A DNA stretch of 40,050 nucleotides, from the IMG/VR virus record IMGVR_UViG_3300010167_000005, positions 1 to 40,050 of that record; one strand, 5' to 3'. Shown one piece after another: positions 1,902-37,165 of this stretch. This DNA is from a virus. The notes beneath the pieces were generated by a model. The model did no database searches, was not told the origin of the DNA, and was given only the letters and a program-made list of their open reading frames with translations. Every line of letters begins with the position of its first letter. The stretch's first letter is position 1. The position numbers and the translations under genes were made by a program.

Positions 1902-2303
1902 ATGAGCAAATTGACTGAATTGTTGGAAGCACTGCTCGGCGATAAGGACACGGAAGTGCATGTTCGTGTCGTTGGCGCCGAAGTAGGTAGAGGGTATGAT
2001 GAAGGAACTGGCGAGAGATCAATAGTCACGACAGAAGCGTATGAGAACGCCAATATAGAAGAGTTGATGGCAAGGCAGGATATAACTGTTATTCTCAACT
2101 TCTTCAATTGGGCTATGGAAAATCATGGCAGAGATTTAGAGACGCTCGTGAAGATAACTCGCTCAGCAATGAAATGTGACTGCGAGAAATGCAAAACTTT
2201 CGTTAAGTGGAATCAAGAAACGCTTGCCGTAATAATCGGCGAGTACAGAAAGGAGCAAGAGCAAGTTTCAAAGATAAGTAAAGAGGTGAAAGGAAATGAG
2301 TAA
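1902..2303 (+). CDS. Hypothetical protein (133 aa)
   Basis: The ATG at 1902 lies directly after the upstream stop (1898-1900). Confidence 0.55.
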   Translation: MSKLTELLEALLGDKDTEVHVRVVGAEVGRGYDEGTGERSIVTTEAYENANIEELMARQDITVILNFFNWAMENHGRDLETLVKITRSAMKCDCEKCKTFVKWNQETLAVIIGEYRKEQEQVSKISKEVKGNE

Positions 2304-2733
2304 AATAAAGGATTATGCCCCGCACATCATCATGGCAGCGGTATTAATTGTACCGTTGATGTTTTGTGCGTGGATGATTGCACAGCCTGAGACGCCAGAT
2401 AATGGTGAGATAACAAGCGCATCATTTGCGCCGTGGGAATTGAATGAAAACGGAGTAATGGTTGTTCCGATAACAGTAACCGTTGACAATATAGATGTCA
2501 GCCGTGTCAGATCAGTGACGATAATAGCATACGATATCGGCAACAATGCCATCGGAACAGCAACGGCGAAGAGAACAGTTATTGTTGGCGGAGCGATATC
2601 ATGCCCGTTCTCGGCGGTAGCAGCATCGTTTGACGAATGGACATTCAGCGGAGCAACGTATCCTGCTATGCCCGATAAAATAACTGTTGAGATATTGATG
2701 CTTGCTGGTAATGTCATCAGTGCAACGACGTGA
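2296..2733 (+). CDS. Membrane-anchored or secreted hypothetical protein (145 aa)
   Basis: GAGGTGA Shine-Dalgarno site. N-terminal hydrophobic helix APHIIMAAVLIVPLMFCAWMIA. Confidence 0.6.
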   Translation: MSKIKDYAPHIIMAAVLIVPLMFCAWMIAQPETPDNGEITSASFAPWELNENGVMVVPITVTVDNIDVSRVRSVTIIAYDIGNNAIGTATAKRTVIVGGAISCPFSAVAASFDEWTFSGATYPAMPDKITVEILMLAGNVISATT

Positions 2734-2999
2734 TATTCATGGCTGAGAAAAGTAAAAGTAACATAGTTGCAGGATTGATATTCCTGTCACTGATCGTCGG
2801 AGCAGTTGGCGGGTTTGTGCTGGCAACAGAATGGCATGAGTGTGATGACTGCTCCCTTGACCATTACGAATGCGATAAGGAACACGCTATCTTATATAAC
2901 TGTACCTTTTGCAAAGATAACCGTGAGATCGTTGGCGTAGGGTATGACGCTGATGGGAGCATAAAGATGATATCCTTACCATGTCCGGAGTGTGGATGA
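2730..2999 (+). CDS. Small membrane protein with Cys-rich (zinc-ribbon-like) ectodomain
   Basis: Transmembrane segment IVAGLIFLSLIVGAVGGFVLA. Cys pairs CDDC, CxxC (CTFC) and CPEC. Start is GTG 2730 or ATG 2739. Confidence 0.55.
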   Translation: MIFMAEKSKSNIVAGLIFLSLIVGAVGGFVLATEWHECDDCSLDHYECDKEHAILYNCTFCKDNREIVGVGYDADGSIKMISLPCPECG

Positions 3000-3409
3000 T
3001 GTTAGGCTGTTTATCCGTCAAACCCTTTTACGCTTCAAAAATCTATCAAGGGTTGAAGACGATAGAGTTTAGGACAAAAGTGTTACCTGAAGGAGATTAC
3101 TTCATCTACTCCTCTGCACCAGATAAATCGGTCAACTGCATGTGCCATATCAATCTGATAGCAGGCGGAGAGGTCAACTTCGTCGATGATTGGCACGATA
3201 GCATATTCCGAAGTGGATGTATATCTCCTGCCGATCTTAAACAGTATCAAGGTAGCAAAAAAAGCATCTTTGCTCACAGGATTTCAAATGTGGTTAAGAT
3301 TAAGCCAGCGTTGAGTATTTACGATCTTATGCTTAATCGTCCGCCTCAATCATGGTGCTATGTCAACTTATCGCAGGTTGAAGTAGACGAATTGTTAAAG
3401 TTGGAATAG
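2981..3409 (+). CDS. ASCH / PUA-like domain protein
   Basis: LSVKPFYASKIYQGLKTIEFR matches the N-terminal ASCH signature (siKqPwa..I..G.KtiEiR). The true start is probably ATG 2996 or 2999. Confidence 0.55.
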   Translation: MSGVWMMLGCLSVKPFYASKIYQGLKTIEFRTKVLPEGDYFIYSSAPDKSVNCMCHINLIAGGEVNFVDDWHDSIFRSGCISPADLKQYQGSKKSIFAHRISNVVKIKPALSIYDLMLNRPPQSWCYVNLSQVEVDELLKLE

Positions 3410-3470
3410 TAATGTTTATATATTACCGTCCTATAACTATACATAACAACTATGGGAGTAGTGGTTAGAA
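3395..3470 (+). promoter_or_regulatory. Promoter-leader cassette copy P2
   Basis: TTAAAGTTGGAATAGTAATGTTTATATA lies at 3395-3422, with TTTATATA at 3415-3422. A 70-bp stretch is identical to P1. The box overlaps the LLKLE-stop of the ASCH gene. Confidence 0.7.
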
Positions 3471-3725
3471 ATGGTGACAAACAAAGCGGAAAAAGTGGTA
3501 GAAAAATATTTGGAAGATTGCGACGCGGCGACGTGGTTTGTGATTACCGAGAACGATAAAGTTATCGGAAAGACGTGGTCAAATGCTTTGGCATTTAGAG
3601 TTGTTGACAACCTGAAAGAAGTGAGGACTATTCTCCTCATGAAGGCTAAAATGAAAATATTTGAGTGCAGATACCTTCACAGCACAAATGAATGGGTGAT
3701 AAGTGAGGTGGCTTTAGATGCCTGA
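3471..3725 (+). CDS. Hypothetical protein (84 aa), first gene behind P2
   Basis: ORF with the ATG exactly 56 nt from the TATA start, as in P1. Confidence 0.6.
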   Translation: MVTNKAEKVVEKYLEDCDAATWFVITENDKVIGKTWSNALAFRVVDNLKEVRTILLMKAKMKIFECRYLHSTNEWVISEVALDA

Positions 3726-4575: not shown

Positions 4576-4812
4576 TTGAAGGCGATTGCGGAGATTGTGA
4601 CCATGATGTCTTCGAATGCCTACTTGAGGAAAGATGCTTCTATTGTTCAAAGGAGAGTGAAGGATGTGTCTGCAGCAGGCTGTGAACATTTGAACGTATT
4701 TATGAAATGGCAGAGGGATATCAAACGCTGGAAATGCGTTATGTGTGGCAAGGTGTTTACACCTGAGGAAACGGAGCAGTATATCATTGAAAGGAGCAGG
4801 CGATTAAAATGA
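4576..4812 (+). CDS. Small hypothetical protein with C-terminal CxxC
   Basis: ORF-track model. An alternative two-gene model exists: a Cys-rich 44-aa ORF at 4551-4685 plus a GTG-started short ORF ending at 4812. Confidence 0.4.
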   Translation: MKAIAEIVTMMSSNAYLRKDASIVQRRVKDVSAAGCEHLNVFMKWQRDIKRWKCVMCGKVFTPEETEQYIIERSRRLK

Positions 4813-5555
4813 TAGGCAATCCCTTTGCTTGCTACCCTTATGACTGGACGTATAACGTTCCGTTCCTGGAAGTGTTTAGCGACGGTGTTAGCACATACGT
4901 CTACATAGATGATAAACCGTGCTACTTCCCTTCAGATATGTCAATAGAGGACATAGAAGGGTATGCAAGATTCTTCTACAATATCGAGCAGGATGTTCGT
5001 TCTCCTCACAGATATTTAACCTCTAACTTCGACGTGTCTGAGGATGATGTCGTCGTTGATTGCGGAGCAGCGGAAGGATTTTTTGCCTTGAGTGTTGCAG
5101 ATCGTGTTAAAAAAGTGTACGTTTTTGAACCCGATGTGAGATGGCTTGAGGCTTTGAGGAAAACTTTCGCACCGTATGACAATGTGGAGATAGTGACGAA
5201 ATATGTTTCAGATCATACCGATAAATATACTTTATCGCTGGATGATTTCTTCTACAAAAAAGATAAACCGACGTTTATCAAGATGGATATAGAAGGCGAG
5301 GAAGAAAGAGCACTCATCGGAGCAAGCGTTTTGCTGGAGACAAGTGTTAAGAAACTTGTTACCGCTTGTTATCATAGAGCGAACGATCTTTACCGGTTGA
5401 GTAAATATGCACAGAGAGCAGGATTTTTAACCTCGACGTCTGAAGGGTTTATTCTGACCAATTTTGACAACTGTGAACCGTATGCGAGGCGATGCTTACT
5501 TCGTGGAGAAAAATTACCCGCAGAAGATCGGCAAAAGTATAGGCCTTTTGTGTAG
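4809..5555 (+). CDS. FkbM-family SAM-dependent methyltransferase
   Basis: VVVDCGAAEGFFALSVADRVKKVYVFEPD is a Rossmann SAM-binding motif, followed by IKMDIEGEE. Both are typical of the FkbM family. Confidence 0.7.
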   Translation: MIGNPFACYPYDWTYNVPFLEVFSDGVSTYVYIDDKPCYFPSDMSIEDIEGYARFFYNIEQDVRSPHRYLTSNFDVSEDDVVVDCGAAEGFFALSVADRVKKVYVFEPDVRWLEALRKTFAPYDNVEIVTKYVSDHTDKYTLSLDDFFYKKDKPTFIKMDIEGEEERALIGASVLLETSVKKLVTACYHRANDLYRLSKYAQRAGFLTSTSEGFILTNFDNCEPYARRCLLRGEKLPAEDRQKYRPFV

Positions 5556-5573
5556 CGCAGGGAGTGAAATGAT

Positions 5574-6269
5574 ATGCCAATTGATAAGATCGTCATAACA
5601 CTCGATCAGGACGAGTTTGTACCCGTTATTACGGGTAAATACCCGTTCGTCTTTCTCAGACGTGTGCCATACGATATGTTGCAAGGAGAGAAGTATGTCG
5701 TTGATATCGCCACACCGATTAAGGGCGGAGGGAGTGGGATGATTGACGGTTTTTTCCAAACTCACGATATAATACACTTAAGGAGTACTGATGAGATACA
5801 CTTGCTCTTTAACGAGCACTGGACAGATTATCATAGAGGGTATAATCATCTTAAATACGATATATCGTTGAGAGACCAGGAGCGCATACAGCGCTGGAAA
5901 GGTGCCTACGCTTTGCCAGTACATTACCCATATCACTCTATCAATATGGATGGCAGTATACAACCTGGCTTGAGTGATTTAAGCACATACGGCATAAAAT
6001 CGTTACCTATTAGAGGGATGTACGCATACGTAGAGGAGTTATCTTCCAACGGACAGAGATTAACTCCTGGCAGAATCAGAAGAGGGCCAAATTGTCCGTA
6101 TTGTATGGGTAGCGGGCAGGGTAGGAGAGATAACGATAACGATAAAGATAAACTGCCGATCAAATGCAACGTATGCGATGGCAGAGGCAGGGTTACAGAT
6201 AAGGCGAAGAGATATATCAAGTGGCTGGAGAGTGAGGCAAAAGATCAAAAAGATATACTTAAGTATTGA
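5574..6269 (+). CDS. Hypothetical protein with C-terminal DnaJ-type CxxCxGxG zinc finger
   Basis: CPYCMGSGQG ... CNVCDGRGRV, separated by a DNDNDKDK low-complexity linker. Confidence 0.6.
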   Translation: MPIDKIVITLDQDEFVPVITGKYPFVFLRRVPYDMLQGEKYVVDIATPIKGGGSGMIDGFFQTHDIIHLRSTDEIHLLFNEHWTDYHRGYNHLKYDISLRDQERIQRWKGAYALPVHYPYHSINMDGSIQPGLSDLSTYGIKSLPIRGMYAYVEELSSNGQRLTPGRIRRGPNCPYCMGSGQGRRDNDNDKDKLPIKCNVCDGRGRVTDKAKRYIKWLESEAKDQKDILKY

Positions 6270-6652
6270 TGAGAGGAAAGATGGCATAGGCATCCCTTTC
6301 TGCCAAAAACATCCCATAGTTGGCAAAGTGTTTTATCCATCCCTCAAATCATCATCCTCCGTTAAACCCTTTCCAAACTTTTTACTTTTAACACTACTTA
6401 AAAAGCCAAATCTCCAGTCGTAATGATGGTTTTTGCAGATCGTGAAAAACCGATAAGTTTTTAAAGGGTACGGTTTTCATTTTTCTACTCGTTTTACTAC
6501 TCTCCGGACTTCATATTTAAACGCTTGTAGTAAAATCAGTAGTAAAAAGAGTGAAGAATGAATAAAGTGCTAATAGTGGCGACCTACATTACGACTGCAA
6601 CCTTCGTGAAAATGTATGCTAGCGTACACTTTTCGATAGGTTTTGTATACAC

Positions 6653-6718
6653 GAGTAGTAAAATGAAAACCATTTTTCACTCCGTTCTTCTACTCGTTTT
6701 ACTACAAACAATTGTTAA
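6653..6718 (+). repeat. Long repeat element, copy A
   Basis: 6671-6718 is identical (48/48) to 26682-26729. 6653-6705 matches the reverse complement of 26527-26579 at 50 of 53 positions. Confidence 0.9.
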
Positions 6719-6787
6719 TAGTATATAATACCATATCTAAACATTGTTAAGTTTTTTCAAAGGTGTATATATATGTTTTGTAAGGGG

Positions 6788-6795
6788 TTTATATA
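6788..6795 (+). promoter_or_regulatory. Candidate TATA box (TTTATATA) for the late/morphogenesis operon
   Basis: Exact TTTATATA about 160 nt upstream of the small terminase ORF. A box copy at 6810-6820 would sit at the predicted transcription start. Confidence 0.35.
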
Positions 6796-6951
6796 GGACG
6801 TAGGAAAACGAGTAGTAAAATAGGCCCTGTCAAACTGCTAACAAAAATGAATTTTATAAAGTAATATTGAACGGTTTCATTTTACTACTCTAAGAAAATA
6901 GCAAATAGCAAAAATAGTAAAAAATGATTGTAAACACGGTTAAGGGATAAG

Positions 6952-7596
6952 ATGATCGTTTTATGGGTGAAAATGGACGAAAGATACAATAGTTTTATAT
7001 TTCTATATTTTTATATCTGTTTTGTGACACCCGCAGTTAAAGGAGCAGATCGTCCATATCGTCCGGTGAATTTAAACAAATTGTGGCGTGAGCCAAAAAG
7101 ACTGGAGTTATTAACCCACTGGGCCAGAATGGGTCACAGCATAAAGAAGATATCTGAGATGATAGGTATCGACCCTGCAACGCTTTATGCCTGGATTAAA
7201 CTTTATCCGGAAGTGAAAGAGGCGTTGGAACAAGGTTGTGAAAGTGCAGATGAAGCAGTTGAAAGCGCTTTATGGAAAAGAGCAAAGGGATACAGTTATG
7301 ACGAAGTGAGTGTGCAATATGATGCTGATGGTAAAATCATTGATAGACGGGTTGTGACAAAGGAACTGCCTCCGGAACCGTCACTGGCTAAATATTGGCA
7401 AACGGTTAGAAAGAAGGGAGATTGGAACGAACGAATTATACTCGACGCTAACGTTAACATGGACATGCAGGTTAATGAATATAGTATAATACAAACATCA
7501 TCTGAAGTATTAAAGATTTTAAAGGCGAAAGGACTGGATGTGAAAGATATTGTCGAAGTGCTTGCCGATATTGAAACAGGAACTGAATCTAACTGA
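6952..7596 (+). CDS. terS: Terminase small subunit (HTH)
   Basis: SIKKISEMIGIDPATLYAWIKLYPEVKEALEQG is an HTH typical of small terminases, and the gene lies directly upstream of terL. The first 30 or so codons look non-coding, so the start is uncertain. Confidence 0.7.
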   Translation: MIVLWVKMDERYNSFIFLYFYICFVTPAVKGADRPYRPVNLNKLWREPKRLELLTHWARMGHSIKKISEMIGIDPATLYAWIKLYPEVKEALEQGCESADEAVESALWKRAKGYSYDEVSVQYDADGKIIDRRVVTKELPPEPSLAKYWQTVRKKGDWNERIILDANVNMDMQVNEYSIIQTSSEVLKILKAKGLDVKDIVEVLADIETGTESN

Positions 7597-9109
7597 TCGT
7601 GAAACGGACGTGCTTGTCTGGGCCTTAAGGCAAGGGACGGCATTTACAACCTTCTACCGATACTTCAAGGAAACGATATTGTCAACACCAGATTGGATGG
7701 AAGCGCCTCATCATAAACAGTTATGTGACATATTACAGCAGGTTGCTGATGGCAAGATAAAAAAACTGATGGTATTCGCTCCTCCCAGGACTGGTAAGAC
7801 GATAATGGTTAGCCAGGCGTTTAGTTCCTGGTTCCTCAGTAGAAATCCTCAGAAGGAAGTGGTTATCGCATGCTACAATCAATCGTATGGAGCGCAGAAC
7901 GCCAACGGAACAAGGATGCAAATGGAACACCCGTTCCATGTCAAACTGTTCCCTGGCTTGTCTGGAGAGGAAGCGATGCGATATAGTAGGTCAGACGCAT
8001 GGGCATTCAGATGTAAAAGAGGGAAAGACCCTAATCTTCGTGGTGTTGGCATAGGAAGTGCGCTAACAGGAAGTGGAGCAAACCTTCTAATCATAGATGA
8101 TTATATCAAGGACCCGGAAGCAGCTCGTTCGGCAACGATAAGAGAAAATACATGGTTGTGGTATACTCAAGTGGCTAAGACAAGGTTGGACCCATTGGAC
8201 AATGCACAGATCATCATCGCCACGCCATGGCATCCTGACGATTTAGCGCACAGAATACTTAAACACGAGGGTGAGATAGGACAGGAGATGGAAGATGGTA
8301 GAGATGGTCAATGGTTGGTTATAAGGATTAGAGCGACAGACGAAGCAGGTCATTCGTTTTGGCCTCAACGGTTTAGCGATGATTTCTTCCAAGAAATGTT
8401 AAACGTCATGGGTCCTAACGTCTACTCCGCACTGTATCTATGCCGTCCAGTATCTGATTTAGGCAGGATATTTGACCCTGAATGGTGGAAGTATTATGAT
8501 GTTAATACACTTAAGGAAGATATTTTAACTCAATCAACTCATATTTACGCCAGTTGGGATACGGCAATGAAGGAGAAGGAACATAACGATTATACCGCCT
8601 GCTCCGTGTGGCTATCACTACCTAACGGTCATCATCTATTGGATACGTTTTATGAACGCGTACGTTTTACAGAGTTAAAGAAAGCGGTGTTGGATATGCA
8701 CAATAAATGGGGAGTTATGTACCATTTGATAGAGGATAAATCAAGCGGAACATCACTAATACAGGAGTTGCAAGATCAAACCACGCTAAACATCATACCC
8801 ATTAATCCAAAGGGACCAAAGTACGAAAGGATTAAGAACGCGTCCATTTATGTCCGTGGCGGGAATGTTTATCTTCCGGCGGAGTTCAGTCTGTACCAGG
8901 GCGGGTTGACTAAGACGCCAACGAGAAAAAGTAAGCAATTAATGGAAATGATGTCACTCTGGCCCATGGTTGACCATGACGATATGCAAGATTGTATCGC
9001 TCAATACCTTAACTATATAAATGACGGTGTTAATACAGTTAAGTATGCTGATATCGCCGATCTTATCCCTAACTTCACTGGCAATACCAACGGAACAGGG
9101 GTGTTCTGA
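7550..9109 (+). CDS. terL: Terminase large subunit
   Basis: Walker A-like FAPPRTGKT and Walker B LLIIDD. RNaseH-like nuclease motifs WDTAMKEKEHNDYTA, IEDKSSG and HDDMQD. The start is non-ATG (TTG 7550 or later). Confidence 0.9.
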   Translation: MSKCLPILKQELNLTDRETDVLVWALRQGTAFTTFYRYFKETILSTPDWMEAPHHKQLCDILQQVADGKIKKLMVFAPPRTGKTIMVSQAFSSWFLSRNPQKEVVIACYNQSYGAQNANGTRMQMEHPFHVKLFPGLSGEEAMRYSRSDAWAFRCKRGKDPNLRGVGIGSALTGSGANLLIIDDYIKDPEAARSATIRENTWLWYTQVAKTRLDPLDNAQIIIATPWHPDDLAHRILKHEGEIGQEMEDGRDGQWLVIRIRATDEAGHSFWPQRFSDDFFQEMLNVMGPNVYSALYLCRPVSDLGRIFDPEWWKYYDVNTLKEDILTQSTHIYASWDTAMKEKEHNDYTACSVWLSLPNGHHLLDTFYERVRFTELKKAVLDMHNKWGVMYHLIEDKSSGTSLIQELQDQTTLNIIPINPKGPKYERIKNASIYVRGGNVYLPAEFSLYQGGLTKTPTRKSKQLMEMMSLWPMVDHDDMQDCIAQYLNYINDGVNTVKYADIADLIPNFTGNTNGTGVF

Positions 9110-11226
9110 TGTCTGGTAAGGAAGTTGGCGAGGAGATAATCACAGAGTTATTTAACCCTCGTCCGGACATTACGATCAAGCACATTTTGGCATCACGCTC
9201 AAATTATCTGGTTGAGAGTAACTTAACTCAACTGTTATCCATAGTCTTTCCATCGGATATGACTTATGATGTGTTTAACGCTGATGGCACAAAAAATGAG
9301 GCTGCTACACAAATTTTAACCAATATGGCTAAAAAACCATCGACTAACTTATGGTACTTCATGCAACAGACATATGACGATATCTTCACGTATGGAGCGT
9401 TGGTAGCAAATAAGTTCTACCAGCAAGATGAGGGTGTGTGGGTGTTGCACTTGAGGCGATTACCGCCTGAAACATTCAGCGAAACGCCGAGTGAGGTTAA
9501 AGGTACATCGTCCATCTTTATGCCCGGACTTATCTCAACATCGAAAGGTATACGTGCTTTCCAAACTTCGACCGATGATACCGGCAATACTCACACGGTT
9601 GAAATCCCAGAAGACAGTTTGCTAATCTTCACAGACCCCAGATATGCAAGTAAGGTAGGGGGCGAGAGTAAACTCAAGTCCATCGTTCCCTTGTTACAAA
9701 ACCTAAACGACGGGTACGTTATGTTTAAACGTGCATCGAGGCGTGCTGGAGACCCGAAGGTTATGGTCAAACGCCCGGCGGATGTGGCTAAAAAGTTAAC
9801 ACCTGAGGAAAGGAACGATCTTAAAAAGTTCTTATCTGACCAAACTGAGAACGGTGCAGTACTGTTACCCGATGGAATGGACGCTCAAGGGGTTCCTATA
9901 AACGCTAACAATATGTGCGAACGGTACTTGACTGTATGTATCCAGCAGATAAAGGACTTCTTTAACCCTACGAGTTGGTTATCAAGTACAGGTACGGCGT
10001 TATCGGAAAGTGGTAAAGCACGGTTGGAGTTAATAAAATTAGCCGTAGCAGGACAGCAGTCTATGGTGGAAGACCATATCGAAGGTGTGTTGAATGAGTG
10101 GCTGGAGATAAATGGTTGGACTGGCTGTACCGTGACAATAACGATCAATAACGCTAACGTGTCAAATGAAGCAGCGCAGGCAAAAATCGTAGAAACGTTG
10201 AGGAAGGAGAAGTTATGTTTTATCAACGAAGGGAGACAGATAATGGGCTTGCCTGCACTTGATGAAGAACAACTTAAGTTATTAGAAGAGGAATATGGCT
10301 CATCAAACGACACATTAGCATCACTACTCACATTCGGCCCTGAAGGGAGACGGCTTCATTCCAACCATGCTGGCATTTCCTCCTTCGTTAATGTAGGCGA
10401 GGAGCACGAACCTAACAGAGCCGAAGCCATTCTTACTAAAGAGTTGGTCAACGTCGGTCAGGAAGTGACAGATAGTATAGTGTCAACGCTAACGGACACG
10501 GGTGTTGACAGGCAGCGGATAGATACAAGTATCGGCATGATGGAGAGAAGGACGGTTGTTAGTCTATCTCAAAATGCTGGCAGGCAATATGCCATCGGAA
10601 GTACTGAAGCGTATACTCGCATGCAAATGGTTCCTGATGGGTTATCTATCATGCAGAGAACGCAGGCATTTACGGAAGATTACGTCAATTTAGCGATAAA
10701 AGAGGGCGTGACGATCATCGACGGCGAGAAGAATAATTGGATATCTCGCTTCCAGGAAGAGCAAAGGGTAGATATATACGATATCATAACGAAAGGGATG
10801 GAAGAAGGCAAGTACCCTGGAGTAAAAGAAGGTGTTAGAGGCGGGTATGCGCAAAACACGATAGGTTACGATCTGCAAGAGTACTTTAATGATAGAAGGT
10901 CACACACCACAACCGTAGCAAGGACGGAGAGTGGTAGAATAATGAATATGGGACACCTTGAGACGTATGCTGAGATGGGTGTTACCCGTGTCCGCGTGCT
11001 CGATGGTGACGGAGCAAACTCGTGCGACGTGTGCAACATGATAAACGGTCAGGAATGGCCGGTAGATTATGCTATGGACCATACCCTTGAGCATCCTAAT
11101 TGCGTTAGGGATTTTATACCGATAAAGCCGAGAGGCGGGTATGCTGTTAACAATATCCCAGTTAAATTATTTAAGGAGAGACAGTTATTACTTAAAATGC
11201 CGTATCAATTTGTGGTGGGAAGATGA
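9109..11226 (+). CDS. Portal protein fused to a Mu F / SPP1 gp7-like head-morphogenesis domain (705 aa)
   Basis: Positioned directly after terL. The C-terminal RTESGRIMNMGH...CDVCNMINGQEW...EHPNCVRDF matches the Phage_Mu_F signature. Confidence 0.8.
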   Translation: MSGKEVGEEIITELFNPRPDITIKHILASRSNYLVESNLTQLLSIVFPSDMTYDVFNADGTKNEAATQILTNMAKKPSTNLWYFMQQTYDDIFTYGALVANKFYQQDEGVWVLHLRRLPPETFSETPSEVKGTSSIFMPGLISTSKGIRAFQTSTDDTGNTHTVEIPEDSLLIFTDPRYASKVGGESKLKSIVPLLQNLNDGYVMFKRASRRAGDPKVMVKRPADVAKKLTPEERNDLKKFLSDQTENGAVLLPDGMDAQGVPINANNMCERYLTVCIQQIKDFFNPTSWLSSTGTALSESGKARLELIKLAVAGQQSMVEDHIEGVLNEWLEINGWTGCTVTITINNANVSNEAAQAKIVETLRKEKLCFINEGRQIMGLPALDEEQLKLLEEEYGSSNDTLASLLTFGPEGRRLHSNHAGISSFVNVGEEHEPNRAEAILTKELVNVGQEVTDSIVSTLTDTGVDRQRIDTSIGMMERRTVVSLSQNAGRQYAIGSTEAYTRMQMVPDGLSIMQRTQAFTEDYVNLAIKEGVTIIDGEKNNWISRFQEEQRVDIYDIITKGMEEGKYPGVKEGVRGGYAQNTIGYDLQEYFNDRRSHTTTVARTESGRIMNMGHLETYAEMGVTRVRVLDGDGANSCDVCNMINGQEWPVDYAMDHTLEHPNCVRDFIPIKPRGGYAVNNIPVKLFKERQLLLKMPYQFVVGR

Positions 11227-26109: not shown

Positions 26110-26439
26110 TTAAAAGCAAGGGTCGTAATACTTTTCTCTATACCCTACTACAAACCTCTGATCGTGTCCAACAACCTTCCATCCTCTCTTCGTTTTTATG
26201 AGTGTGAGTATTTCGCCGTCTGGGTTAGGCGTGTACTTATATTCCTGGTGCTCGCTCTGACAGGTTCCGCCTACGAGTTTTGCGTCGTCTTCCTGCACCC
26301 TTATCTTCTTCTGTGTGATGACTTCTATGACTGTGTACGGGTATCTGTCGCTCCACATGACCTTCGTCGCTCCCGTACCAACTTCTATCTTCTCTACGCC
26401 TGCTCCTTCCATCATTCTGTTCTGAACGCTTCCATACAT
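26110..26439 (-). CDS. Hypothetical protein (109 aa), first gene behind P5
   Basis: The ATG (MYGSVQ...) lies 9 nt after GGAGG in a leader resembling those of P1-P3. The track start is an upstream TTG at 26448. Confidence 0.6.
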   Translation of the reverse strand: MYGSVQNRMMEGAGVEKIEVGTGATKVMWSDRYPYTVIEVITQKKIRVQEDDAKLVGGTCQSEHQEYKYTPNPDGEILTLIKTKRGWKVVGHDQRFVVGYREKYYDPCF

Positions 26440-26511
26440 TTTTGCCAACCTCCATAGTTGATAGATATAGTATACAACTTAAGTATATAAATATTACTAT
26501 TAGAACTTTAA
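26440..26511 (-). promoter_or_regulatory. Promoter-leader cassette copy P5 (leftward)
   Basis: The reverse complement of 26484-26511 is TTAAAGTTCTAATAGTAATATTTATATA. The leader is caactatggaggttggcaaaaATG. Confidence 0.65.
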
Positions 26512-26526
26512 TGTAACAATAGTTAA

Positions 26527-26579
26527 GTAGTAAAACGAGTAGTAAATCGGAGTGAAAAATGGTTTTCATTTTACTACTC
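26527..26579 (-). repeat. 53-bp element, inverted copy
   Basis: The reverse complement matches 6653-6705 at 50 of 53 positions. Confidence 0.9.
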
Positions 26580-26681
26580 TCACGGTTGGAGGACCTAAAC
26601 AAAATTTAGGTGCAGAATTTTGGCTGATAAAAATAAATGTGACACCTTTACACCTGAGTAGTAAAACAACTCATTTTTACT

Positions 26682-26729
26682 CATTTTTCACTCCGTTCTT
26701 CTACTCGTTTTACTACAAACAATTGTTAA
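26682..26729 (+). repeat. 48-bp element, direct copy
   Basis: Identical to 6671-6718 (catttttcactccgttcttctactcgttttactacaaacaattgttaa). Confidence 0.95.
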
Positions 26730-26898
26730 GTATATTTATTGCTTACGTAAAAATAGATGATCATTTATATAATGTAGTAAAATGAAGGGTGGTTTCAAAC
26801 TGCGTATAAAAATCAAAATATATAATAATATGACAGGATTATTTGCTTCATTTTACTACTCACAACTTAATTGTATAATATTTCTATATATCCATATA

Positions 26899-26906
26899 TT
26901 TATATA
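26899..26906 (+). promoter_or_regulatory. Candidate TATA box for the rightward replication operon (probable leaderless first gene)
   Basis: TTTATATA starts 29 nt upstream of the ATG at 26928. No Shine-Dalgarno site lies between them. Confidence 0.45.
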
Positions 26907-26927
26907 ATTATATTTTAATATCATTCT

Positions 26928-27314
26928 ATGTACTTGCGGCTATGGACGGAAGCGTATACGAGCGTTGAGGAGTTCAACTTCGACCTGGCTGATCGGATGA
27001 AATGCTATATGGCGATGGTTGATATAGCGTTTGACACAGAGTATTTCGAGCAACGGTTGAATATGCTATCCGCTAAGTTTGACTGGTCGGCAGTAGGTAC
27101 GTTTGAGAGATATTGGTTGACAGTGAAGAAATACTTCTTTGAGATTGGCGGAGCAGCGATATTGAGAAAGATATTCAAGGGTACGGTTGACGATAAAGAT
27201 ATGCGGAAGGAGTTTGAGAAAAGAATAGGGTATGAGAATTTATCTTCTGCTTTAGACGAATTAGATTGCTCAGAGATAACAAGAGAAGAGTACAGGGAGT
27301 TGAACAAGGTATGA
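26928..27314 (+). CDS. Hypothetical protein (128 aa)
   Basis: First ORF of the rightward unit. Confidence 0.6.
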   Translation: MYLRLWTEAYTSVEEFNFDLADRMKCYMAMVDIAFDTEYFEQRLNMLSAKFDWSAVGTFERYWLTVKKYFFEIGGAAILRKIFKGTVDDKDMRKEFEKRIGYENLSSALDELDCSEITREEYRELNKV

Positions 27315-27472
27315 GAGGCAAAACTGAAATAATGTTCTCTGCATACGCAGATCGAAACCTCTACGCTGAATTATGCAAAGAAGCGATAGAGCGGGGCGTG
27401 AATCGTTCCATAATAATAGACGAAATGCTTGCGGAGAGATATCGTGCTAAAATTAATGCAACATCAGACTAA
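27311..27472 (+). CDS. Ribbon-helix-helix (CopG/Arc-like) DNA-binding protein (53 aa)
   Basis: ATGA-coupled start. IMFSAYADRNLYAELCKEAIERGVNRSIIIDEMLAERY fits the RHH pattern of a beta strand followed by two helices. Confidence 0.6.
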   Translation: MRGKTEIMFSAYADRNLYAELCKEAIERGVNRSIIIDEMLAERYRAKINATSD

Positions 27473-28808
27473 AACGGTCAAACTATCAGATCATGTAGAG
27501 CAGCACGCTCTTCTATGGACGATGGGTACGGGCAAAACTATCGCTACTTGGAGCATATTAGCAAATCTATTGCATCAAGGTAAGATAAAGAACGGGTTAA
27601 TCGTCTGTCCAATCCAGGTAATAGGGGCGTGGGAAGATGATCGTAAGCGGTTTGGCGAGAAAACTCAAGAATTGTTATCCGCAATAAAAATCATAAATTA
27701 TGAAAAACTCCATCGCCGAAAAGAGGCTTATGCCGCTGATTGGGATGCTATTGTAGTAGACGAGAGCCACATGATATCGAATAGAAAATCTCTCCGTTTC
27801 AAAACGTTGGGGATAATGGTACGGAAGGAGCAGTACCGCTTCATATTATCTGGCACGCCGATAGGTAATGCTCGAATGGAAGACTACTTCTCTCAATTTA
27901 AGTTTTTGTTGGGAGAGGAGTTTCCTTTCAAATCCTATAAATCATTTTTAGACGCATACTTTTCATACGATTTAAGTGAGAGTAGAGCCACGGGAGCGAG
28001 ATTTTATGACAGAGTTTATTGCAATAGAATTGATGAGTTATTACGCTGGATAGCGCCATACTCCTCTCGATATGATAAGTCCGTATTATCTGATTTATTG
28101 GAACCGTTGCCACCAACTGTTCACAAGGTTGAGTTGAGTGACAAAAACTTAGCGATTTACAAGCAGTTAAAGAAGAGCAAGGTAATAATATCTGATGATG
28201 GCTCCATAGTAGCAGATCGTGCGCTAACCTTGCTCATACGGTTGCGCCAGTTATCTTCACATATATTCTCAGCCGAAGAAGGGTACGTGGAGATAATCAG
28301 AGAAAAGGACAAGTTAACGCCTAAAATACAGGCGTTAGCGGACATATTAAGAAGTAAAAATATTATTGATGATGATAATATCTCAACTAAGCAAGGTAGC
28401 AAAATCGTGATATTTGTCGACTGGGTGGAGAGTATGGAGCAGATAACACGCTTCTTAAGATCGGCTGGCGTGAAATATGAGCAGATGGGCAATGGCGTGA
28501 CAGGGCATGAGCATTGGCAAAACTTCCAGGCGGATGATAACATTAAGGTTTTTGTTGGTAACTATCGCTCCATATCTCTCGGCGTGCAGTTATTTTCAGC
28601 AGATACTGCCATCTTCTTCGAACCGACGCTATCATCCCAGCAGGATACGCAGGCAAGATCAAGAATACATCGAAAGGGGCAGAAGGGGATTTGCAGTTAT
28701 ATTTACCTTATAGCAAAGGGTACAGTGGAAGAGGAGATATACAATAGACTGAAACATTTTGAAGATTTTTTTAATAAAATGTTCCTAAATTACCTTAAGT
28801 TGGAATAG
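27444..28808 (+). CDS. SNF2-family (SF2) DNA helicase / translocase
   Basis: Motifs MGTGKT (motif I), VVDESH (motif II), LSGTP (motif III) and a C-terminal QDTQARSRIHRKGQ (motif VI). The likely start is GTG 27444, 7 nt after GGAG. TTG 27429 and ATG 27456 are alternatives. Confidence 0.85.
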   Translation: MLKLMQHQTKTVKLSDHVEQHALLWTMGTGKTIATWSILANLLHQGKIKNGLIVCPIQVIGAWEDDRKRFGEKTQELLSAIKIINYEKLHRRKEAYAADWDAIVVDESHMISNRKSLRFKTLGIMVRKEQYRFILSGTPIGNARMEDYFSQFKFLLGEEFPFKSYKSFLDAYFSYDLSESRATGARFYDRVYCNRIDELLRWIAPYSSRYDKSVLSDLLEPLPPTVHKVELSDKNLAIYKQLKKSKVIISDDGSIVADRALTLLIRLRQLSSHIFSAEEGYVEIIREKDKLTPKIQALADILRSKNIIDDDNISTKQGSKIVIFVDWVESMEQITRFLRSAGVKYEQMGNGVTGHEHWQNFQADDNIKVFVGNYRSISLGVQLFSADTAIFFEPTLSSQQDTQARSRIHRKGQKGICSYIYLIAKGTVEEEIYNRLKHFEDFFNKMFLNYLKLE

Positions 28809-28856
28809 TAATATATTTATATAGAGATATTAATATATCAGACAGAGGTTACAAAA
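28795..28856 (+). promoter_or_regulatory. Promoter-leader cassette copy P4 (divergent copy)
   Basis: TTAAGTTGGAATAGTAATATATTTATATA lies at 28795-28823 and overlaps the YLKLE-stop of the SNF2 gene. The leader ends GAGGTTACAAAAATG. Confidence 0.55.
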
Positions 28857-29666
28857 ATGAACGAAGGAAAAACGCAGATGTCGCCGTATTTCCCACAAAT
28901 ACCAAAAGGCGGGATTATTGCGATATCGACATCGAAAGGGACGAAGCAATATGTGACAAAAGAGGGAATGTACTCTCTCGCTTTCACAGTAGGACAGAAA
29001 ATGCCGTATCGTATCGAATACGATCTATGCGAAAGAGAGATAGACGGTCATAGAGTTCTCATGTGCAAGGGTAGGCTGTACAAGACCGAATTATCGCAAG
29101 AAAAAAGTGCAGCGATGAATCTGCTGATGAATGAGAATGTTCTTAAAAACGCTCCACTTGTCGATATGTTAATGAGCATATTGGAAAAGCCAGACTGTGA
29201 AGATATCGCTGTTAAGCCGATGCCGATAGCACCAAAAGGAACGGTAGTTGACCCGAAAGAGATAGAGGCGCTGTACAAGAGGACAATAACAAACTGCAAG
29301 ATGAGAGTATTGTCCGAGTTTGTCGGAGCAGGGTATGCGATAGTATCTGACATGACAGATGAAGACGTTGAAGACGCATCGCCAGAAAGACAAATGGCTG
29401 CCGTTGAAGAAGGACTCAAGAAGTTCGAAGAGATGGATAAAAAGGAAGTGGCGTTGGAAACGAAGGCTGATTATATCCGCGCCATAAGTGAGATATGCAT
29501 CAGAAACCTCGGGTCAAATGACATCAAGGTTGCATACTTCAAAGACAAGGAGATAACTCGGAACAGCCAGTTGACAGACGATCAGGCAAAAGAACTCTAC
29601 GAACAGATCACAAAAAGTATAGGCCAAACGTGTAGCGCAACAGAAGAAACGGCAACAGAGGAATAA
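28857..29666 (+). CDS. Hypothetical protein (269 aa); recombination-module position
   Basis: ORF behind P4 and immediately upstream of the Cas4-like nuclease. No motif recognised, so a single-strand annealing role is only a positional guess. Confidence 0.55.
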   Translation: MNEGKTQMSPYFPQIPKGGIIAISTSKGTKQYVTKEGMYSLAFTVGQKMPYRIEYDLCEREIDGHRVLMCKGRLYKTELSQEKSAAMNLLMNENVLKNAPLVDMLMSILEKPDCEDIAVKPMPIAPKGTVVDPKEIEALYKRTITNCKMRVLSEFVGAGYAIVSDMTDEDVEDASPERQMAAVEEGLKKFEEMDKKEVALETKADYIRAISEICIRNLGSNDIKVAYFKDKEITRNSQLTDDQAKELYEQITKSIGQTCSATEETATEE

Positions 29667-31384: not shown

Positions 31385-31738
31385 ATGGACTTCCCTAAGC
31401 AGGAGAACGACAAACCACTTAAACTCATTCCTTATGAGTCAGATATACGCAAAAGATGCGACAATCTGATGAAAAAAAGGGGTGCGTATATCTGTCCTGT
31501 CAATCAGGACGAAAGAGGTTCGTCGGGCGCTCCGGACAGAGTGTACTGCTACAAGGGAATGTTTATCGCCGTTGAGTATAAGAGAAGCGCGAGCGAAAAG
31601 GCATCAAGACTGCAACTGCACCATAAGGACATGATAAGATCAGCGGGTGGCAAATGGTATCTGATATGGAGTAGCGAGCAGTTAGAATTGGAAATGCACA
31701 TATTAGAAGGGACGATCAATGCCGAAAAGAAAAAATGA
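31385..31738 (+). CDS. VRR-NUC / Holliday-junction-resolvase-like PD-(D/E)XK nuclease
   Basis: GAPDRVYCYKGMFIAVEYK gives the D...E.K catalytic pattern. The ATG at 31385 lies just after the upstream stop. Confidence 0.65.
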   Translation: MDFPKQENDKPLKLIPYESDIRKRCDNLMKKRGAYICPVNQDERGSSGAPDRVYCYKGMFIAVEYKRSASEKASRLQLHHKDMIRSAGGKWYLIWSSEQLELEMHILEGTINAEKKK

Positions 31739-33704
31739 CTTTACACAATTCAACGAATGCTTTAACGCATCCGATTCACGTTGCTACGTGATTTGCGATG
31801 CGAATAAGCAACGAAGGAATAGTGAAGTGTACAGTTATCAAGAAGCAAAGGAGTACCTTGAGAAAGGTGCTCTCATAGGGTTCATTTTACCGAAAAACAT
31901 TATCGTTATGGACTTTGATAAAACTGTTTCACAATACATCTTAAGTCTAACGAAATGGGATACAAACCCTAACGATATAACCCATTCCACAACGCCGAAC
32001 GGAATGCACGTTTGGCTTAAATCTGAAGAGGAATATGCTAGCGATATATTGACAATGTGCGGTATATCTGCACGTGTCTATCGTGAAGGGAAATATGTCA
32101 TTCTTCCTTATGGGTGTGATGATAGAGAATTTGTTCAGATGGACGCGTTGAAAGGGTATGATTTCTACCCGATGCTTAAACCGTTGGAATATACTTCGCG
32201 TCCTATATTTAACATACCTATTCCTACTGATGCCTATATAGACACGCTGAAAAGATATGTTCAGATATTAGAAAATGAAGGCTACGATCAGATAGGCATC
32301 GGTGTAGCGTTGACATGGATTAATGATAAGTTAGCTGAAGAGTCAATTCCTCGTGATGTGCTAATTAACAGTGTTATCGGCGATGCCAGAGATATCTCAT
32401 TCATGGACGGAAATAAATTCGACCATGTCAAAATGGTGGATTTTTTCATAGCCAGGTATCCGATGGTTGTCCGCAATGATAGAGTATTTGTCTATTTCGA
32501 CGGCGTGTACAAAGAAGCGGAGAAGTTTATCGAGAATATGACAGTGTACCATCATCCGCCGATTAAGATGGCACAGCGTAAAGAGGTTATCGAAACGTTG
32601 CGGATTAAGGTTAGATCAAAAGAAAAGAAGATGGCGATGAGTAAAAATGTTGTCAACTTTAAGAACGGTACCGTATCGGTTGAAAAATACGGTCAACTTA
32701 ACCCTCATCTACCTGAAACGGTTCTATTCCAGCAGATATCTGCCAATTTTGATTCACAATGGCAGTCTAAAGAGATGCTGGATGTAGACAGATATTTTAA
32801 AGATGTTACGCAAGGCGATGAGCAGTTAGAGAAATTCCTCTATCAATTAATCGGGTACTGCTTAATACCTAACCTGGTATGGGATAAGGCGTTTATCTTA
32901 TGGGGACCCACAGCGGATAACGGTAAGTCCACATTCCTCAAGGTTCTAACAGCAGTAGTAGGTAAAGATAATGTGTCATCGGTATCGTTAAAGCAGATAG
33001 TTGACGATAAGTTCTCACTGGTTAAGACGAATCACAAACTTGTCAATTTGCAAGGAGAGACGTCAACAGCATATTTAGAAGATATCGCTATTTTTAAACA
33101 AATTGTTACCGGAGACGATATTTTAGTGCAGGAGAAAAATCAGCCAGCGTTCATGATGACACCGAGTTGCAAACATATCTTTGCAACAAACGAGTTCCCG
33201 AAGATAAGGGATAAATCAAACGGATTTTATCGACGTGTTTTTGCTGTTGAGTTTAAGGCGAAATTTAGCGAGGAACAGAAGGCTAAATTCAGCATTGATA
33301 ATATCACGCACCAGCAGGCGCTGGACTATATCGCCAGTCGTGCCATATATGAGTATAGCGAAGTTGTGAGGACAAGGACCTGGGCCAAATCCGATGCTTC
33401 TGATATGCTCGTAAATCAGATCAAAATAACCTCATCAAGTGTTGCAGAGTTTTGGTCGAAAGAGATATTAGAAGGGGAGCACATAAACCGTCCGGAATTA
33501 TACACTCGCTATCAAGCCTTTTGCGATGCTGAGGCGGTGAAACATGTGACTGGAAAGAAATCTTTTTATAATGAGTTAAGATTATTTTATCCAGACGAGT
33601 ATAAAGAGTACGGTTCCAACGGGCAGATTTACATAGAAAAAGTTAAGAAGGAAGAAAAGAAACAAGAGGAAGAGAAAAATGAGGTTCTATACAAGCTCTT
33701 TTGA
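31719..33704 (+). CDS. Bifunctional primase-polymerase (prim-pol) + D5/P4-type SF3 helicase
   Basis: The N-terminal part has IVMDFDK (DxD) and TPNGMHVW (sGxH). The helicase part has Walker A WGPTADNGKST and a P4/D5-type C-terminal region. Confidence 0.85.
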   Translation: MPKRKNDFTQFNECFNASDSRCYVICDANKQRRNSEVYSYQEAKEYLEKGALIGFILPKNIIVMDFDKTVSQYILSLTKWDTNPNDITHSTTPNGMHVWLKSEEEYASDILTMCGISARVYREGKYVILPYGCDDREFVQMDALKGYDFYPMLKPLEYTSRPIFNIPIPTDAYIDTLKRYVQILENEGYDQIGIGVALTWINDKLAEESIPRDVLINSVIGDARDISFMDGNKFDHVKMVDFFIARYPMVVRNDRVFVYFDGVYKEAEKFIENMTVYHHPPIKMAQRKEVIETLRIKVRSKEKKMAMSKNVVNFKNGTVSVEKYGQLNPHLPETVLFQQISANFDSQWQSKEMLDVDRYFKDVTQGDEQLEKFLYQLIGYCLIPNLVWDKAFILWGPTADNGKSTFLKVLTAVVGKDNVSSVSLKQIVDDKFSLVKTNHKLVNLQGETSTAYLEDIAIFKQIVTGDDILVQEKNQPAFMMTPSCKHIFATNEFPKIRDKSNGFYRRVFAVEFKAKFSEEQKAKFSIDNITHQQALDYIASRAIYEYSEVVRTRTWAKSDASDMLVNQIKITSSSVAEFWSKEILEGEHINRPELYTRYQAFCDAEAVKHVTGKKSFYNELRLFYPDEYKEYGSNGQIYIEKVKKEEKKQEEEKNEVLYKLF

Positions 33705-34608
33705 CGCAATGACATGCCATGTCCACGGCGTCGTATTATCGCCGGTCCACTTAGAGAGTAATTTTGATGCAAGTAATTACAAAGTATTCATCGACAGCGG
33801 AGGGTTTACCGACGTTCATGCTCACAAAAGATTGACGTATCGAGAGGCGTTGGACAGACAGATAAAAATAGCAGGAAGATTAAACGCTACTCCGGAGATG
33901 CTGGCAGGGTACGACCTTATCTCTCCGCTATGCTTCCCATCGTCAACTCGCAAATTTAAATCGCCAGAAAACGATCATGCGATAGAAACGACAATCAAGG
34001 CAGCGGAGTGGTTTGATAAACATCGTGATGAGATGCTCGGTGCAAGTCCAATGTTCATTCTCCAGGGTGCATGGCCGAGTGATTTCATGCACTGTTTGGA
34101 ACACATCGTCCCTCTACTTGAAGAAGGAGATACTATCGGCTTCGGGTCGTCGGCGTCAAACAACGACAAAATAAAGCAGAGACTAAGAGAAATAACTGCT
34201 GGTACTTGCGCTAAACTGCAAGGCACAGCCTGCAATAAAGTTCATTATTTAGGGCTATCGCCAATCAACGATCTCTGCCAGTTTGACACATATTGCAGAC
34301 AGAGAGGGATTGACCCCTCATATGACACTTCATCGTATATCAGAAGGTGCGCTTTCGGAGACATCAGTGCACCGCCAGACTTCAACGAAACGGTTGATGC
34401 CTTGTCTAAGTTAGACAAGCAGAGAAGATGGACGTATTTTAATATATCCGTCGGTTCAGTGCAGGCGTTTTGGGACCATTGGAATTTTTATTTCGATGAC
34501 TTGAGTTTGGACGAATATAACTTTGAAGAATTTAAAACCAAGAATGACATCAAGTATGACGAGTTCATGGCTGGACAAAACGCTTTAGACAAATGGGTGA
34601 AAAAATGA
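33679..34608 (+). CDS. dpdA: DpdA-like DNA/tRNA-guanine transglycosylase family protein
   Basis: FIDSGGF matches the TGT catalytic DSGGF motif. HYLGLS ... YDTSSY matches the second TGT/DpdA motif block. Size is DpdA-like (309 aa). An alternative start is ATG 33709. Confidence 0.7.
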   Translation: MRFYTSSFDAMTCHVHGVVLSPVHLESNFDASNYKVFIDSGGFTDVHAHKRLTYREALDRQIKIAGRLNATPEMLAGYDLISPLCFPSSTRKFKSPENDHAIETTIKAAEWFDKHRDEMLGASPMFILQGAWPSDFMHCLEHIVPLLEEGDTIGFGSSASNNDKIKQRLREITAGTCAKLQGTACNKVHYLGLSPINDLCQFDTYCRQRGIDPSYDTSSYIRRCAFGDISAPPDFNETVDALSKLDKQRRWTYFNISVGSVQAFWDHWNFYFDDLSLDEYNFEEFKTKNDIKYDEFMAGQNALDKWVKK

Positions 34609-35339: not shown

Positions 35340-35724
35340 AAGTGAAGAAAGAACAGAGGAGAAAGTGACAAAGATCGGCGACGTAATGTACGCCGTTTCT
35401 TCTGAGCGTGTCACGTGTCCGTTCTGCAAGGGTACAGAGAAGTTGGACCGAACGATATTCATACCGGCGGTGTTGCAAGGCAACGTCAAATGTGTATGCA
35501 ATGGCGGGTGGTTCTTTGCTCCGTATCGTGTCGTTGAAGGGAAAGTCGCAGAGATAATCCTGCGTGAAACGGCAGAAGGAGTGCAGAAGAAATACGTCAT
35601 GGACTTCGGGCAAAGAAACGAGGAAAGAGATGAACGTCTGTATTCAAACAAAAAGGACGCCGAAGGATTGGCAGCGGAACTGAACGATCAGTATGACAAA
35701 CTCGAGGTGGTCCTTCGTGCGTAA
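35332..35724 (+). CDS. Hypothetical zinc-binding protein (130 aa)
   Basis: CPFC ... CVC Cys pairs. Confidence 0.55.
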   Translation: MAKSEERTEEKVTKIGDVMYAVSSERVTCPFCKGTEKLDRTIFIPAVLQGNVKCVCNGGWFFAPYRVVEGKVAEIILRETAEGVQKKYVMDFGQRNEERDERLYSNKKDAEGLAAELNDQYDKLEVVLRA

Positions 35725-37063: not shown

Positions 37064-37092
37064 TAAACATTTTACCATTTTTCTTTTTCATA

Positions 37093-37165
37093 TTAAAGTT
37101 AGAATAGTAATGTTTATATACAACTTAAGTATTACTACTATTACAACTATGGGAAGTGGTTAAAA
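37093..37165 (+). promoter_or_regulatory. Promoter-leader cassette copy P3
   Basis: TTAAAGTTAGAATAGTAATGTTTATATA lies at 37093-37120, preceded by oligo-T tracts. The leader is caactatgggaagtggttaaaaATG. Confidence 0.65.

Follow-up and report, generated by a model that had tools for sequence, protein, structure and literature searches.

The viral DNA described here, positions 1 to 40,050 of IMG/VR record IMGVR_UViG_3300010167_000005 (the window; 40,050 nucleotides), carries two large gene-free regions, W1 and W2, in which copies of an 11-nt box, GAGTAGTAAAA, form arrays in both orientations. These arrays are coupled to consensus promoter sequences, which appears to be the most specific clue to their role. 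We propose, tentatively and with slightly less than even confidence, that the boxes are operator arrays for a virus-encoded regulator controlling the promoters of both the late and the early operons, the regulator possibly being a small ribbon-helix-helix (RHH)-like protein encoded at 27311-27472.

The first 123 bases of the window are identical to the last 123, giving a genome unit of 39,927 bp that is assembled as a circle. A second assembly of the same genome (L121) has its break point elsewhere and is base-for-base identical in the region of interest. All genes are on the plus strand with one exception (26110-26439, minus strand), and they fall into two blocks. The structural block runs from terS to approximately 25.8 kb and includes TerS, TerL (Terminase_6N/6C), and a Mu-like portal. 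The early/replication block starts at 26,928, passes through the assembly junction, and ends at 6,269; it codes for the RHH-like protein, an SNF2 helicase, a PD-(D/E)XK nuclease, and a D5-type primase-helicase. W1 and W2 are exactly the block boundaries, at the starts of co-oriented gene blocks, and lie about half a turn apart on the 39,927-bp circle, together accounting for 3% of the genome. Only two close relatives of TerL are present among 5.8 billion proteins, those of relative C (L124; 71% identical) and relative B (L123/L125; 61% identical). The main landmarks are as follows.

6270-7023: gene-free region W1, 754 nt, 32% GC (genome 44%), between the last early/middle gene and terS
26449-26927: gene-free region W2, 479 nt, 26% GC, between the sole minus-strand gene and the early/replication operon
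7024-7596, plus strand: TerS, the small terminase subunit, with an N-terminal helix-turn-helix and a revised start codon, GTG

The boxes are strongly enriched and confined to these two regions. Seven exact copies of GAGTAGTAAAA are present in the whole genome against 0.03 expected, and the 11 copies with no more than one mismatch (0.95 expected) all lie within 6480-6890 or 26525-26861. Allowing two mismatches yields 29 genome-wide matches, 18 of them inside W1 and W2. A position weight matrix (PWM) scores 17 inside sites at 12 to 17 bits and no outside site above 10.5 bits; the matrix was built from the 17 inside boxes themselves, so that only the outside maximum is informative. The original prediction, made from the letters of the sequence, that the 11-mer is restricted to two noncoding regions is thus borne out by both scans at a level far above chance. 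Also confirmed are the 19-mer extension of some boxes, GGTTTTCATTTTACTACTC, with four copies at up to three mismatches against 0.02 expected, and the repeats common to the two regions: a 48-bp perfect direct repeat (6671-6718 and 26682-26729) and a 53-nt inverted element (6653-6705 versus 26527-26579) that is 94% complementary. The absence of a known motif family is also correct as far as tested. There is no other repeat array anywhere in the genome. Partial matches to the box had been reported in the leaders of three promoters, P1 to P3, and these prove to be only a TAGTAA or AGTAGT hexamer within one repeated promoter sequence and not independent boxes. On the circle, the copies of the 48-nt repeat are almost diametrically placed, with 20,011 bp between them one way round and 19,916 bp the other; if they recombined, the products would be two near-equal circles, one with the structural genes and one with the early genes, and neither assembly shows such split genome forms.

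The arrays have a regular anatomy. Taking as forward a box with its GAGTAGT core before the A-run on the plus strand, we count six doublets, each repeating at exactly 12 nt and each fitting a 23-nt composite, GTAGTAAAAC-GAGTAG(T/A)AAAA. Tandem doublets in both orientations had been recognized previously, although their description required correction: every doublet has the 12-nt period, and several extend into a degenerate third box. The degenerate boxes are recognized by register and by pairing in the predicted fold and are weaker calls. In a recurrent 53-nt unit, U, a single forward 19-mer box precedes a reverse array; the unit is present at 6653-6707 and 26656-26718, and in inverted form at 26525-26579. 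W2 has the layout [forward x3, reverse x1], 76 nt, [forward x1, reverse x3]. W1 begins with [reverse x2], 22 nt, [forward x3], 93 nt, [forward x1, reverse x3], and continues with 90 nt at 23% GC, after which come a forward doublet and, 59 nt farther on, one reverse box and then a weak forward one. W1 has approximately ten boxes and W2 approximately eight (eight strong boxes lie within 26525-26861), with approximately 19 sites overall.

6472-6502, minus strand: reverse doublet with 12-nt period (6480-6490, 6492-6502), the first box extending into the 19-mer
6510-6522: TATA-like ATATTTAAA between outward-facing arrays, read by eye
6525-6559, plus strand: forward array with boxes at 6525 and 6537 and a degenerate third at 6549 (GAGTGAAGAA)
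6653-6707: unit U, with a forward 19-mer box (6653-6671), then a degenerate box (about 6672-6682) and reverse boxes (6685-6695, 6697-6707)
6705-6718: palindromic element CAAACAATTGTTAA (core AACAATTGTT), with a second copy at 26716-26729 and weaker variants at 6737 and 26513; also in relative C
6708-6797: AT-rich 90 nt, 23% GC, with a reverse doublet on one side and a forward doublet on the other; its duplex ranks with the least stable in the genome
6798-6820, plus strand: forward doublet between the TATA box at 6788 and the predicted transcription start, an operator position
6872-6890, minus strand: reverse box with 19-mer extension
6912-6922, plus strand: weak forward box AAATAGTAAAA, 9.4 bits
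26525-26579: inverted unit U, with forward boxes at 26525 and 26537, a degenerate box at 26549, and a reverse 19-mer box (26561-26579)
26656-26718: unit U, 76 nt from the inverted unit, with a forward box (26656-26666), a degenerate box (about 26682-26693), and reverse boxes (26696-26706, 26708-26718)
26851-26861, minus strand: reverse box

The coupling of these arrays to promoters is seen in the distribution of the consensus TATA box TTTATATA, of which there are only seven copies on the plus strand of the window, all of them intergenic. Four are in one repeated promoter sequence, one is 25.5 nt before the ATG at 26928, and the last two, at 6788 and 26764, each have forward boxes 0 to 2 nt downstream. 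The copy at 6788-6795 had been noted in the original prediction together with the box at 6810-6820, and both are present as described, the box being part of a forward doublet ahead of the predicted start. The space between TATA box and start is the classical position for archaeal repressor operators. The first gene of each block also has a TATA box of its own. TerS aligns with its relatives only from the GTG at 7024, 26.5 nt after a TATA box, and W1 therefore probably runs to 7023 and not to 6951; the terS start formerly placed at 6952 is probably wrong, and 7024 is the better fit. A similar TATA-to-terS spacing is seen by eye in L124 and L125.

6788-6795, plus strand: consensus TATA box TTTATATA, which we propose to be a distal late-operon promoter under control of the boxes
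6994-7001, plus strand: TATA box 26.5 nt before GTG 7024, proposed promoter of a leaderless terS transcript
26764-26782, plus strand: consensus TATA box TTTATATA (26764-26771), followed at once by a forward box (26772-26782)
26899-26906, plus strand: consensus TATA box 25.5 nt before ATG 26928, proposed promoter of a leaderless early-operon transcript
26484-26508, minus strand: copy of the repeated promoter sequence facing the minus-strand gene 26110-26439

The relatives keep this organization. The regions upstream of terS in the window, B, and C cannot be aligned as sequences and yet have the same construction, with at least 750 nt free of genes in C and approximately 600 nt in B. Relative C carries the same type of box as the window: all five of its boxes at 9.7 bits or better lie at 461-645, in the gene-free stretch of a 3.5-kb contig, and it shares the palindrome CAAACAATTGTTAA and a 14-mer, TGTTAAGTATATTT, with the window; a TATA-like element followed by a doublet can be read by eye at 437-481. 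The box of relative B differs (CCAGGAAAAA), and all eight copies with at most one mismatch fall at 995-1167 in 13.4 kb (L125). They are arranged as [forward x3, reverse x1], 70 nt, [forward x1, reverse x2-3], which is the W2 layout, with inverted arms of 56 nt that are 80% complementary. The sole plus-strand TTTATATA in the 13.4 kb, at 984, is directly followed by the three-box forward array. These comparisons support virus-specific protein-binding boxes in the two noncoding regions of the window, in a region that the relatives keep while the box changes. Of the roles considered in the original prediction, that of an operator array has the most direct sequence support, with forward boxes right after a TATA box at 6788, at 26764, and at 984 in relative B.

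In the operator reading, a single sequence-specific DNA-binding protein encoded by the virus would recognize all the boxes, in arrays that would sit on archaeal-type promoters at the early-to-late (W1) and late-to-early (W2) boundaries. One protein unit would occupy each box, neighbors on the 12-nt doublets and triplets would bind cooperatively, and inverted sets 70 to 110 nt apart would come together in a looped or wrapped complex. With forward boxes between the TATA box and the expected start at TTTATATA-6788 and -26764, TBP and TFB would bind and RNA polymerase would be kept out. This single protein would set the promoters of the late (terS and structural) and early operons, acting as a temporal switch or as a carrier-state repressor. 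The most plausible binder would be the RHH-like protein; proteins of this class bind tandem 11-nt repeats as cooperating dimers.

27311-27472, plus strand: RHH-like protein, 53 aa, second gene of the early operon, candidate box binder
31719-33704, plus strand: primase-helicase (D5_N, DUF5906, Pox_D5), candidate binder if the boxes are an origin
35693-35956, plus strand: helix-turn-helix protein, 87 aa, a further candidate DNA binder

The nearest known counterpart is F55, an RHH protein of SSV1; at four promoters, T5, T6, Tind, and Tlys, it binds a tandem pair of 11-nt repeats that overlap the start and the B recognition element (BRE) (PMC5569661). The likeness lies in a virus that is archaeal (here probably so) with 11-nt tandem doublets, a box present at several promoters, a small RHH-like gene nearby, and sites within the stretch from TATA/BRE to start, here with predicted starts. 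In contrast to F55, there are approximately 19 sites here, with inverted sets, a palindromic superstructure, and an unrelated box sequence, and the virus is tailed rather than a fusellovirus, with binding that is predicted.

A further contig, L208, carries a relative's early operon (B'); its SNF2 protein is 55% identical to that of the window, it comes from the same samples as B, and it is probably B itself. Aligned with its L208 counterpart, the 27311-27472 protein matches in the helices and not in the N-terminal strand region, which is the part that reads DNA in the RHH fold.

Several points weigh against operators read by the RHH-like protein. The match of 27311-27472 to RHH_1 (E = 0.001, 19.4 bits) is below the 20.5-bit Pfam cutoff, and the structural model, with an extended N terminus and two helices, is of low confidence (pLDDT 65); the proteins named here as binders are candidates. 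In L208, the stretch before the early operon is only approximately 117 nt and has no box array, and arrays would therefore be unneeded for early-operon control in that virus. The conserved location of the arrays would accordingly be upstream of terS, and the second array of the window, in W2, looks like a recent duplication or the outcome of concerted evolution. Most operators need fewer than the ten boxes seen here, which extend over 440 gene-free nt. Box-controlled promoters would imply leaders of 135 to 410 nt, yet a second TATA box lies directly before each first gene. TATA-like strings are also common at approximately 30% GC, and the transcription starts used here are predicted.

The serious rival, which we consider possible but doubtful and do not favor, is that the boxes are iterons of one or more replication origins (an origin was also among the candidate roles of the original prediction), bound by a C-terminal winged-helix domain of the primase-helicase 31719-33704. 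Two hexamers would load on inverted box sets and melt the adjoining AT-rich DNA, and the two regions would represent a pair of origins or one origin with an auxiliary site, as in P4 ori/crr or SPP1 oriL/oriR. P4 and SPP1 are known for initiator binding at two loci, and the P4 repeats are bound by a D5-type primase-helicase. The window likewise has the same short repeats at two loci kilobases apart in one genome, whereas relative B appears to be single-locus, and the role assigned here is read from sequence. The encoded primase-helicase is a homologue of an iteron-binding, self-loading helicase, matching PDB 7OLA (SaPI5 PriRep5) at E = 1e-31 over residues 257-626; the match extends to chain residue 748, within the C-terminal domain (676-790), and Pox_D5 is at 572-655. 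In relative B', every contig found truncates the homologue at residue 453. Origins of the SaPI family have 6 to 12 short iterons, in two opposite sets around an AT-rich center, that are bound by the C-terminal winged helix (PMC9371898), and they lie directly downstream of rep. The window resembles these in its homologous primase-helicase, short element-specific repeats, opposite sets around AT-rich DNA, and similar repeat count of 6 to 12, as where the reverse doublet at 6685-6707 and the forward doublet at 6798-6820 flank 90 nt at 23% GC, an arrangement with a parallel in W2.

An origin would also be in keeping with the [3+1]-70/76 nt-[1+3] layout that W2 and relative B have in common despite their different boxes, with the lack of any other repeat array in the genome to serve as one, and with the variable placement of the arrays (in both regions of the window and, as far as seen, only upstream of terS in B), which suits a self-contained module. 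However, the arrays are not beside the primase-helicase gene: the nearest are 4.8 kb upstream and 12.5 kb downstream of it, and the next gene overlaps its end, leaving no origin directly downstream. They differ from SaPI origins in this placement, in their 11-nt boxes (5 to 6 nt in SaPIs), in being present at two loci, in their coupling to TATA boxes, and in a host that is probably archaeal. The center between the inverted units is not AT-rich (37 to 40% GC), the per-gene GC skew at third codon positions (GC3), as well as AT3, gives no origin or terminus signal, and an origin does not require the tight TATA-array coupling seen in two viruses. A duplex-stability scan is uninformative, its minima being simply the promoters. 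A dual role as operator and origin is possible. A more specific version, which we judge unlikely, is that the palindromic eight-box unit [3+1], 70-76 nt, [1+3] is a portable origin for a PriRep-like, self-loading superfamily 3 (SF3) helicase, wired into consensus promoters of tailed viruses of methanogen-related archaea, such that one complex would couple the start of replication to early and late operon control; the unit would be present twice and nearly opposite on the circle (20,011 and 19,916 bp).

The position of W1 next to terS raises a third reading, an improbable one, in which the region is a pac site: the TerS helix-turn-helix would bind the box sets, and TerL would cut the unique center (approximately 6560-6652) for headful packaging. 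In all three viruses terS comes immediately after the region, the recognition helix of the N-terminal TerS helix-turn-helix varies among the window, B, and C, and the TerL is of the Terminase_6 type with a Mu-like portal, a combination typical of headful packaging. Two circular assemblies with different break points would also fit permuted ends. Known terminase sites with repeated boxes include lambda cosB (R1-R3), SPP1 pacL/pacR, and the P1 pac hexamer sets, which the window resembles in having boxes in both orientations upstream of terS, a TerS helix-turn-helix, and a flanked unique center. It differs from them in having a second full array 20 kb from terS (26525-26718), a complete box unit whose layout is shared by relative B, and in having no box inside terS. 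The pac/cos role put forward in the original prediction is weakened by these differences and by the recognition helices, which by our count are alike at four of 12 positions between the window and C, with the same box type, and at six of 12 between the window and B, with different boxes. TerS as the reader of the boxes is thus unsupported, since recognition-helix similarity does not track box similarity.

That W1 and W2 instead specify a structured noncoding RNA or small peptide genes, or serve as recombination substrates (with the 48-nt direct and 53-nt inverted repeats promoting inversion or resolution), is highly improbable. No gene is present in the 6270-6951 stretch, as originally predicted, and a translated comparison with two relatives matches none of the short open reading frames (ORFs) of W1 (all E > 0.01), whereas TerS, as a positive control in the same comparison, gives 4e-55 and 3e-34. 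The shared 48-nt repeat is moreover read in different frames by ORFs of W1 and W2, arguing against peptide genes. There is no tRNA in the region, no Rfam family at gathering score, and no Rfam match even at E up to 1; the checks of ORFs, tRNAs, and Rfam thus reveal no conserved gene or structured RNA that would explain it. The segment 6541-6720 has a fold z-score of -3.98, the sole significant fold, but this is merely the inverted box arrays pairing (the degenerate box at 6549 pairs with 6685-6695), the predicted transcription starts are downstream of the 5' arms, and the leader at 6815-7023 is unstructured (z = +1.69). Recombination might be suggested by the long near-identical repeats in both orientations 20 kb apart, but there is no integrase or invertase among the scanned proteins, and both assemblies have a single arrangement.

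The host is likely archaeal, to judge from several sequence features. The TATA boxes 25.5 to 26.5 nt before the start codons of terS and the first early gene fit archaeal leaderless-transcript promoters, and the sole match of the portal among 50,697 GenBank phage records is to a Methanomicrobiales virus (vir524). A provirus carried by an archaeal contig of the same sample contains a 63% identical homologue (L211 5413-5751) of the minus-strand gene, and the archaeal-type S-adenosylmethionine (AdoMet) synthetase of that contig is 84 to 85% identical to those of termite-gut Methanomassiliicoccales genomes. The host is perhaps a member of the Methanomassiliicoccales, an inference by association; 52% identical homologues of the minus-strand gene are widespread in Enterococcus (31 member sequences, 897 contigs), showing that such genes travel.

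A further reading is that the boxes are sites for host factors, either origin recognition boxes (ORBs) for Orc1/Cdc6 or sites for a recruited chromatin protein, to which we attach very little weight. The archaeal mini-ORB core is TTCC...GAA (PMC1904270). The relative B boxes (TTCCAGG, CTGGAAAAA) loosely recall this core by eye, and the inverted sets adjoin AT-rich DNA; however, the window box lacks the core, no Orc1/Cdc6 gene is among the scanned window proteins, and box sequences differ between viruses from the same samples. The likeness to ORBs is too loose to use.

Searches farther afield give few related genomes. An exact 15-mer scan of IMG/VR yields at least 120 single chance matches and no array, TerL and SNF2 searches of IMG/VR find no close relative, a TerL scan of GTDB genomes finds nothing, and blastn of 6000-9200 against GenBank phages returns no match. 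A metagenome scan adds only one further close relative, L125, together with approximately 35 distant TerL relatives, a few of which (L172, L177, L153, and L167) have large gaps upstream of terS; the two that were inspected, L172 and L177, have no comparable box arrays. The L172 gap (TerL 25% identical) is 974 nt free of genes at 2238-3211, with possibly structured, GC-rich segments and AT-rich tandem motifs, unlike the window arrays. In the Methanomicrobiales virus vir524, the 377-nt gap before terS contains only one small ACGTAGA doublet. Relatives B (L125 1068-1105) and C (L124 305-340) have in common a 14-mer, AATGTCTGATAATA, within a local inverted repeat ahead of terS, with no copy in the window.

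Several other sequences are repeated in the window. The promoter-like sequence AAAGTTnnAATAGTAATGTTTATATA is present five times (756-845, 3392-3481, 28797-28822, and 37091-37137 on the plus strand and 26471-26512 on the minus strand), preceding four early/middle gene groups and the sole minus-strand gene. Two copies have 90 nt in common at 93% identity, leader included, and the 20 conserved nt upstream of the TATA box suggest a site for a second regulator. AAAGTTnnAATAGTAATGTTTATATA and the boxes have the hexamer TAGTAA in common. A CGCysAATAyCwTAACTATATAAA repeat is found near the end of the TerL gene (8998-9021) and at the end of gene 19650-20117 (20095-20118), and a 35-nt repeat (80% identity) at 5525-5559 and 29605-29639, at the ends of genes 4809-5555 and 28857-29666. 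These short gene-end repeats may be terminators or internal signals.

The relative's early operon is present in three independent assemblies (L208, L209, and a JGI contig of 6315 bp) that stop at the same two points, one approximately 65 nt inside the minus-strand gene and the other following residue 453 of the primase-helicase. The pattern points to a conserved 6.3-kb segment between strain-variable flanks, and the C-terminal, DNA-binding part of the helicase would fall in the variable DNA. The first leaderless early gene (26928-27314, 128 aa) has no detectable similarity to the gene in the same position in L208 (183-581, 132 aa), while the neighboring replication genes are 38 to 55% identical between the window and L208; it looks like a fast-evolving or replaced function. 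Farther along, 34593-35339 codes for a homologue of queuosine-precursor transporters (TIGR00697, E = 4e-33; Pfam Vut_1), and the overlapping upstream gene 33679-34608 (309 aa) has no family match; the two may form a 7-deazaguanine DNA-modification module, which is a guess on our part. The product of the minus-strand gene 26110-26439 is 109 to 112 aa long and belongs to no family, and an unrelated archaeal provirus has a homologue at the end of its structural module; the gene may be an accessory one common to archaeal and bacterial viruses. We considered this 112-aa protein as a CI-like repressor and rejected it, as it is without a DNA-binding signature and its homologues lie in contexts that look accessory.

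To our knowledge, almost nothing is known about origins, packaging signals, or regulatory circuits in tailed viruses of methanogen-related archaea. The motif and layout described here are new, and the kind of element, repeated protein-binding sites in a viral control region, is familiar; the value is thus in a new example and an experimental handle, not a new mechanism. It is a concrete cis-element, with a defined 11-nt box, a conserved higher-order layout, and a short list of candidate binders, and the three related viruses, which keep the region and differ in the box, constitute a natural specificity-swap series. Should the boxes prove to be operators, a temporal or carrier-state switch would be defined for such a virus; should they prove to be iterons, a PriRep-type helicase would for the first time have an assigned origin outside bacterial satellites.

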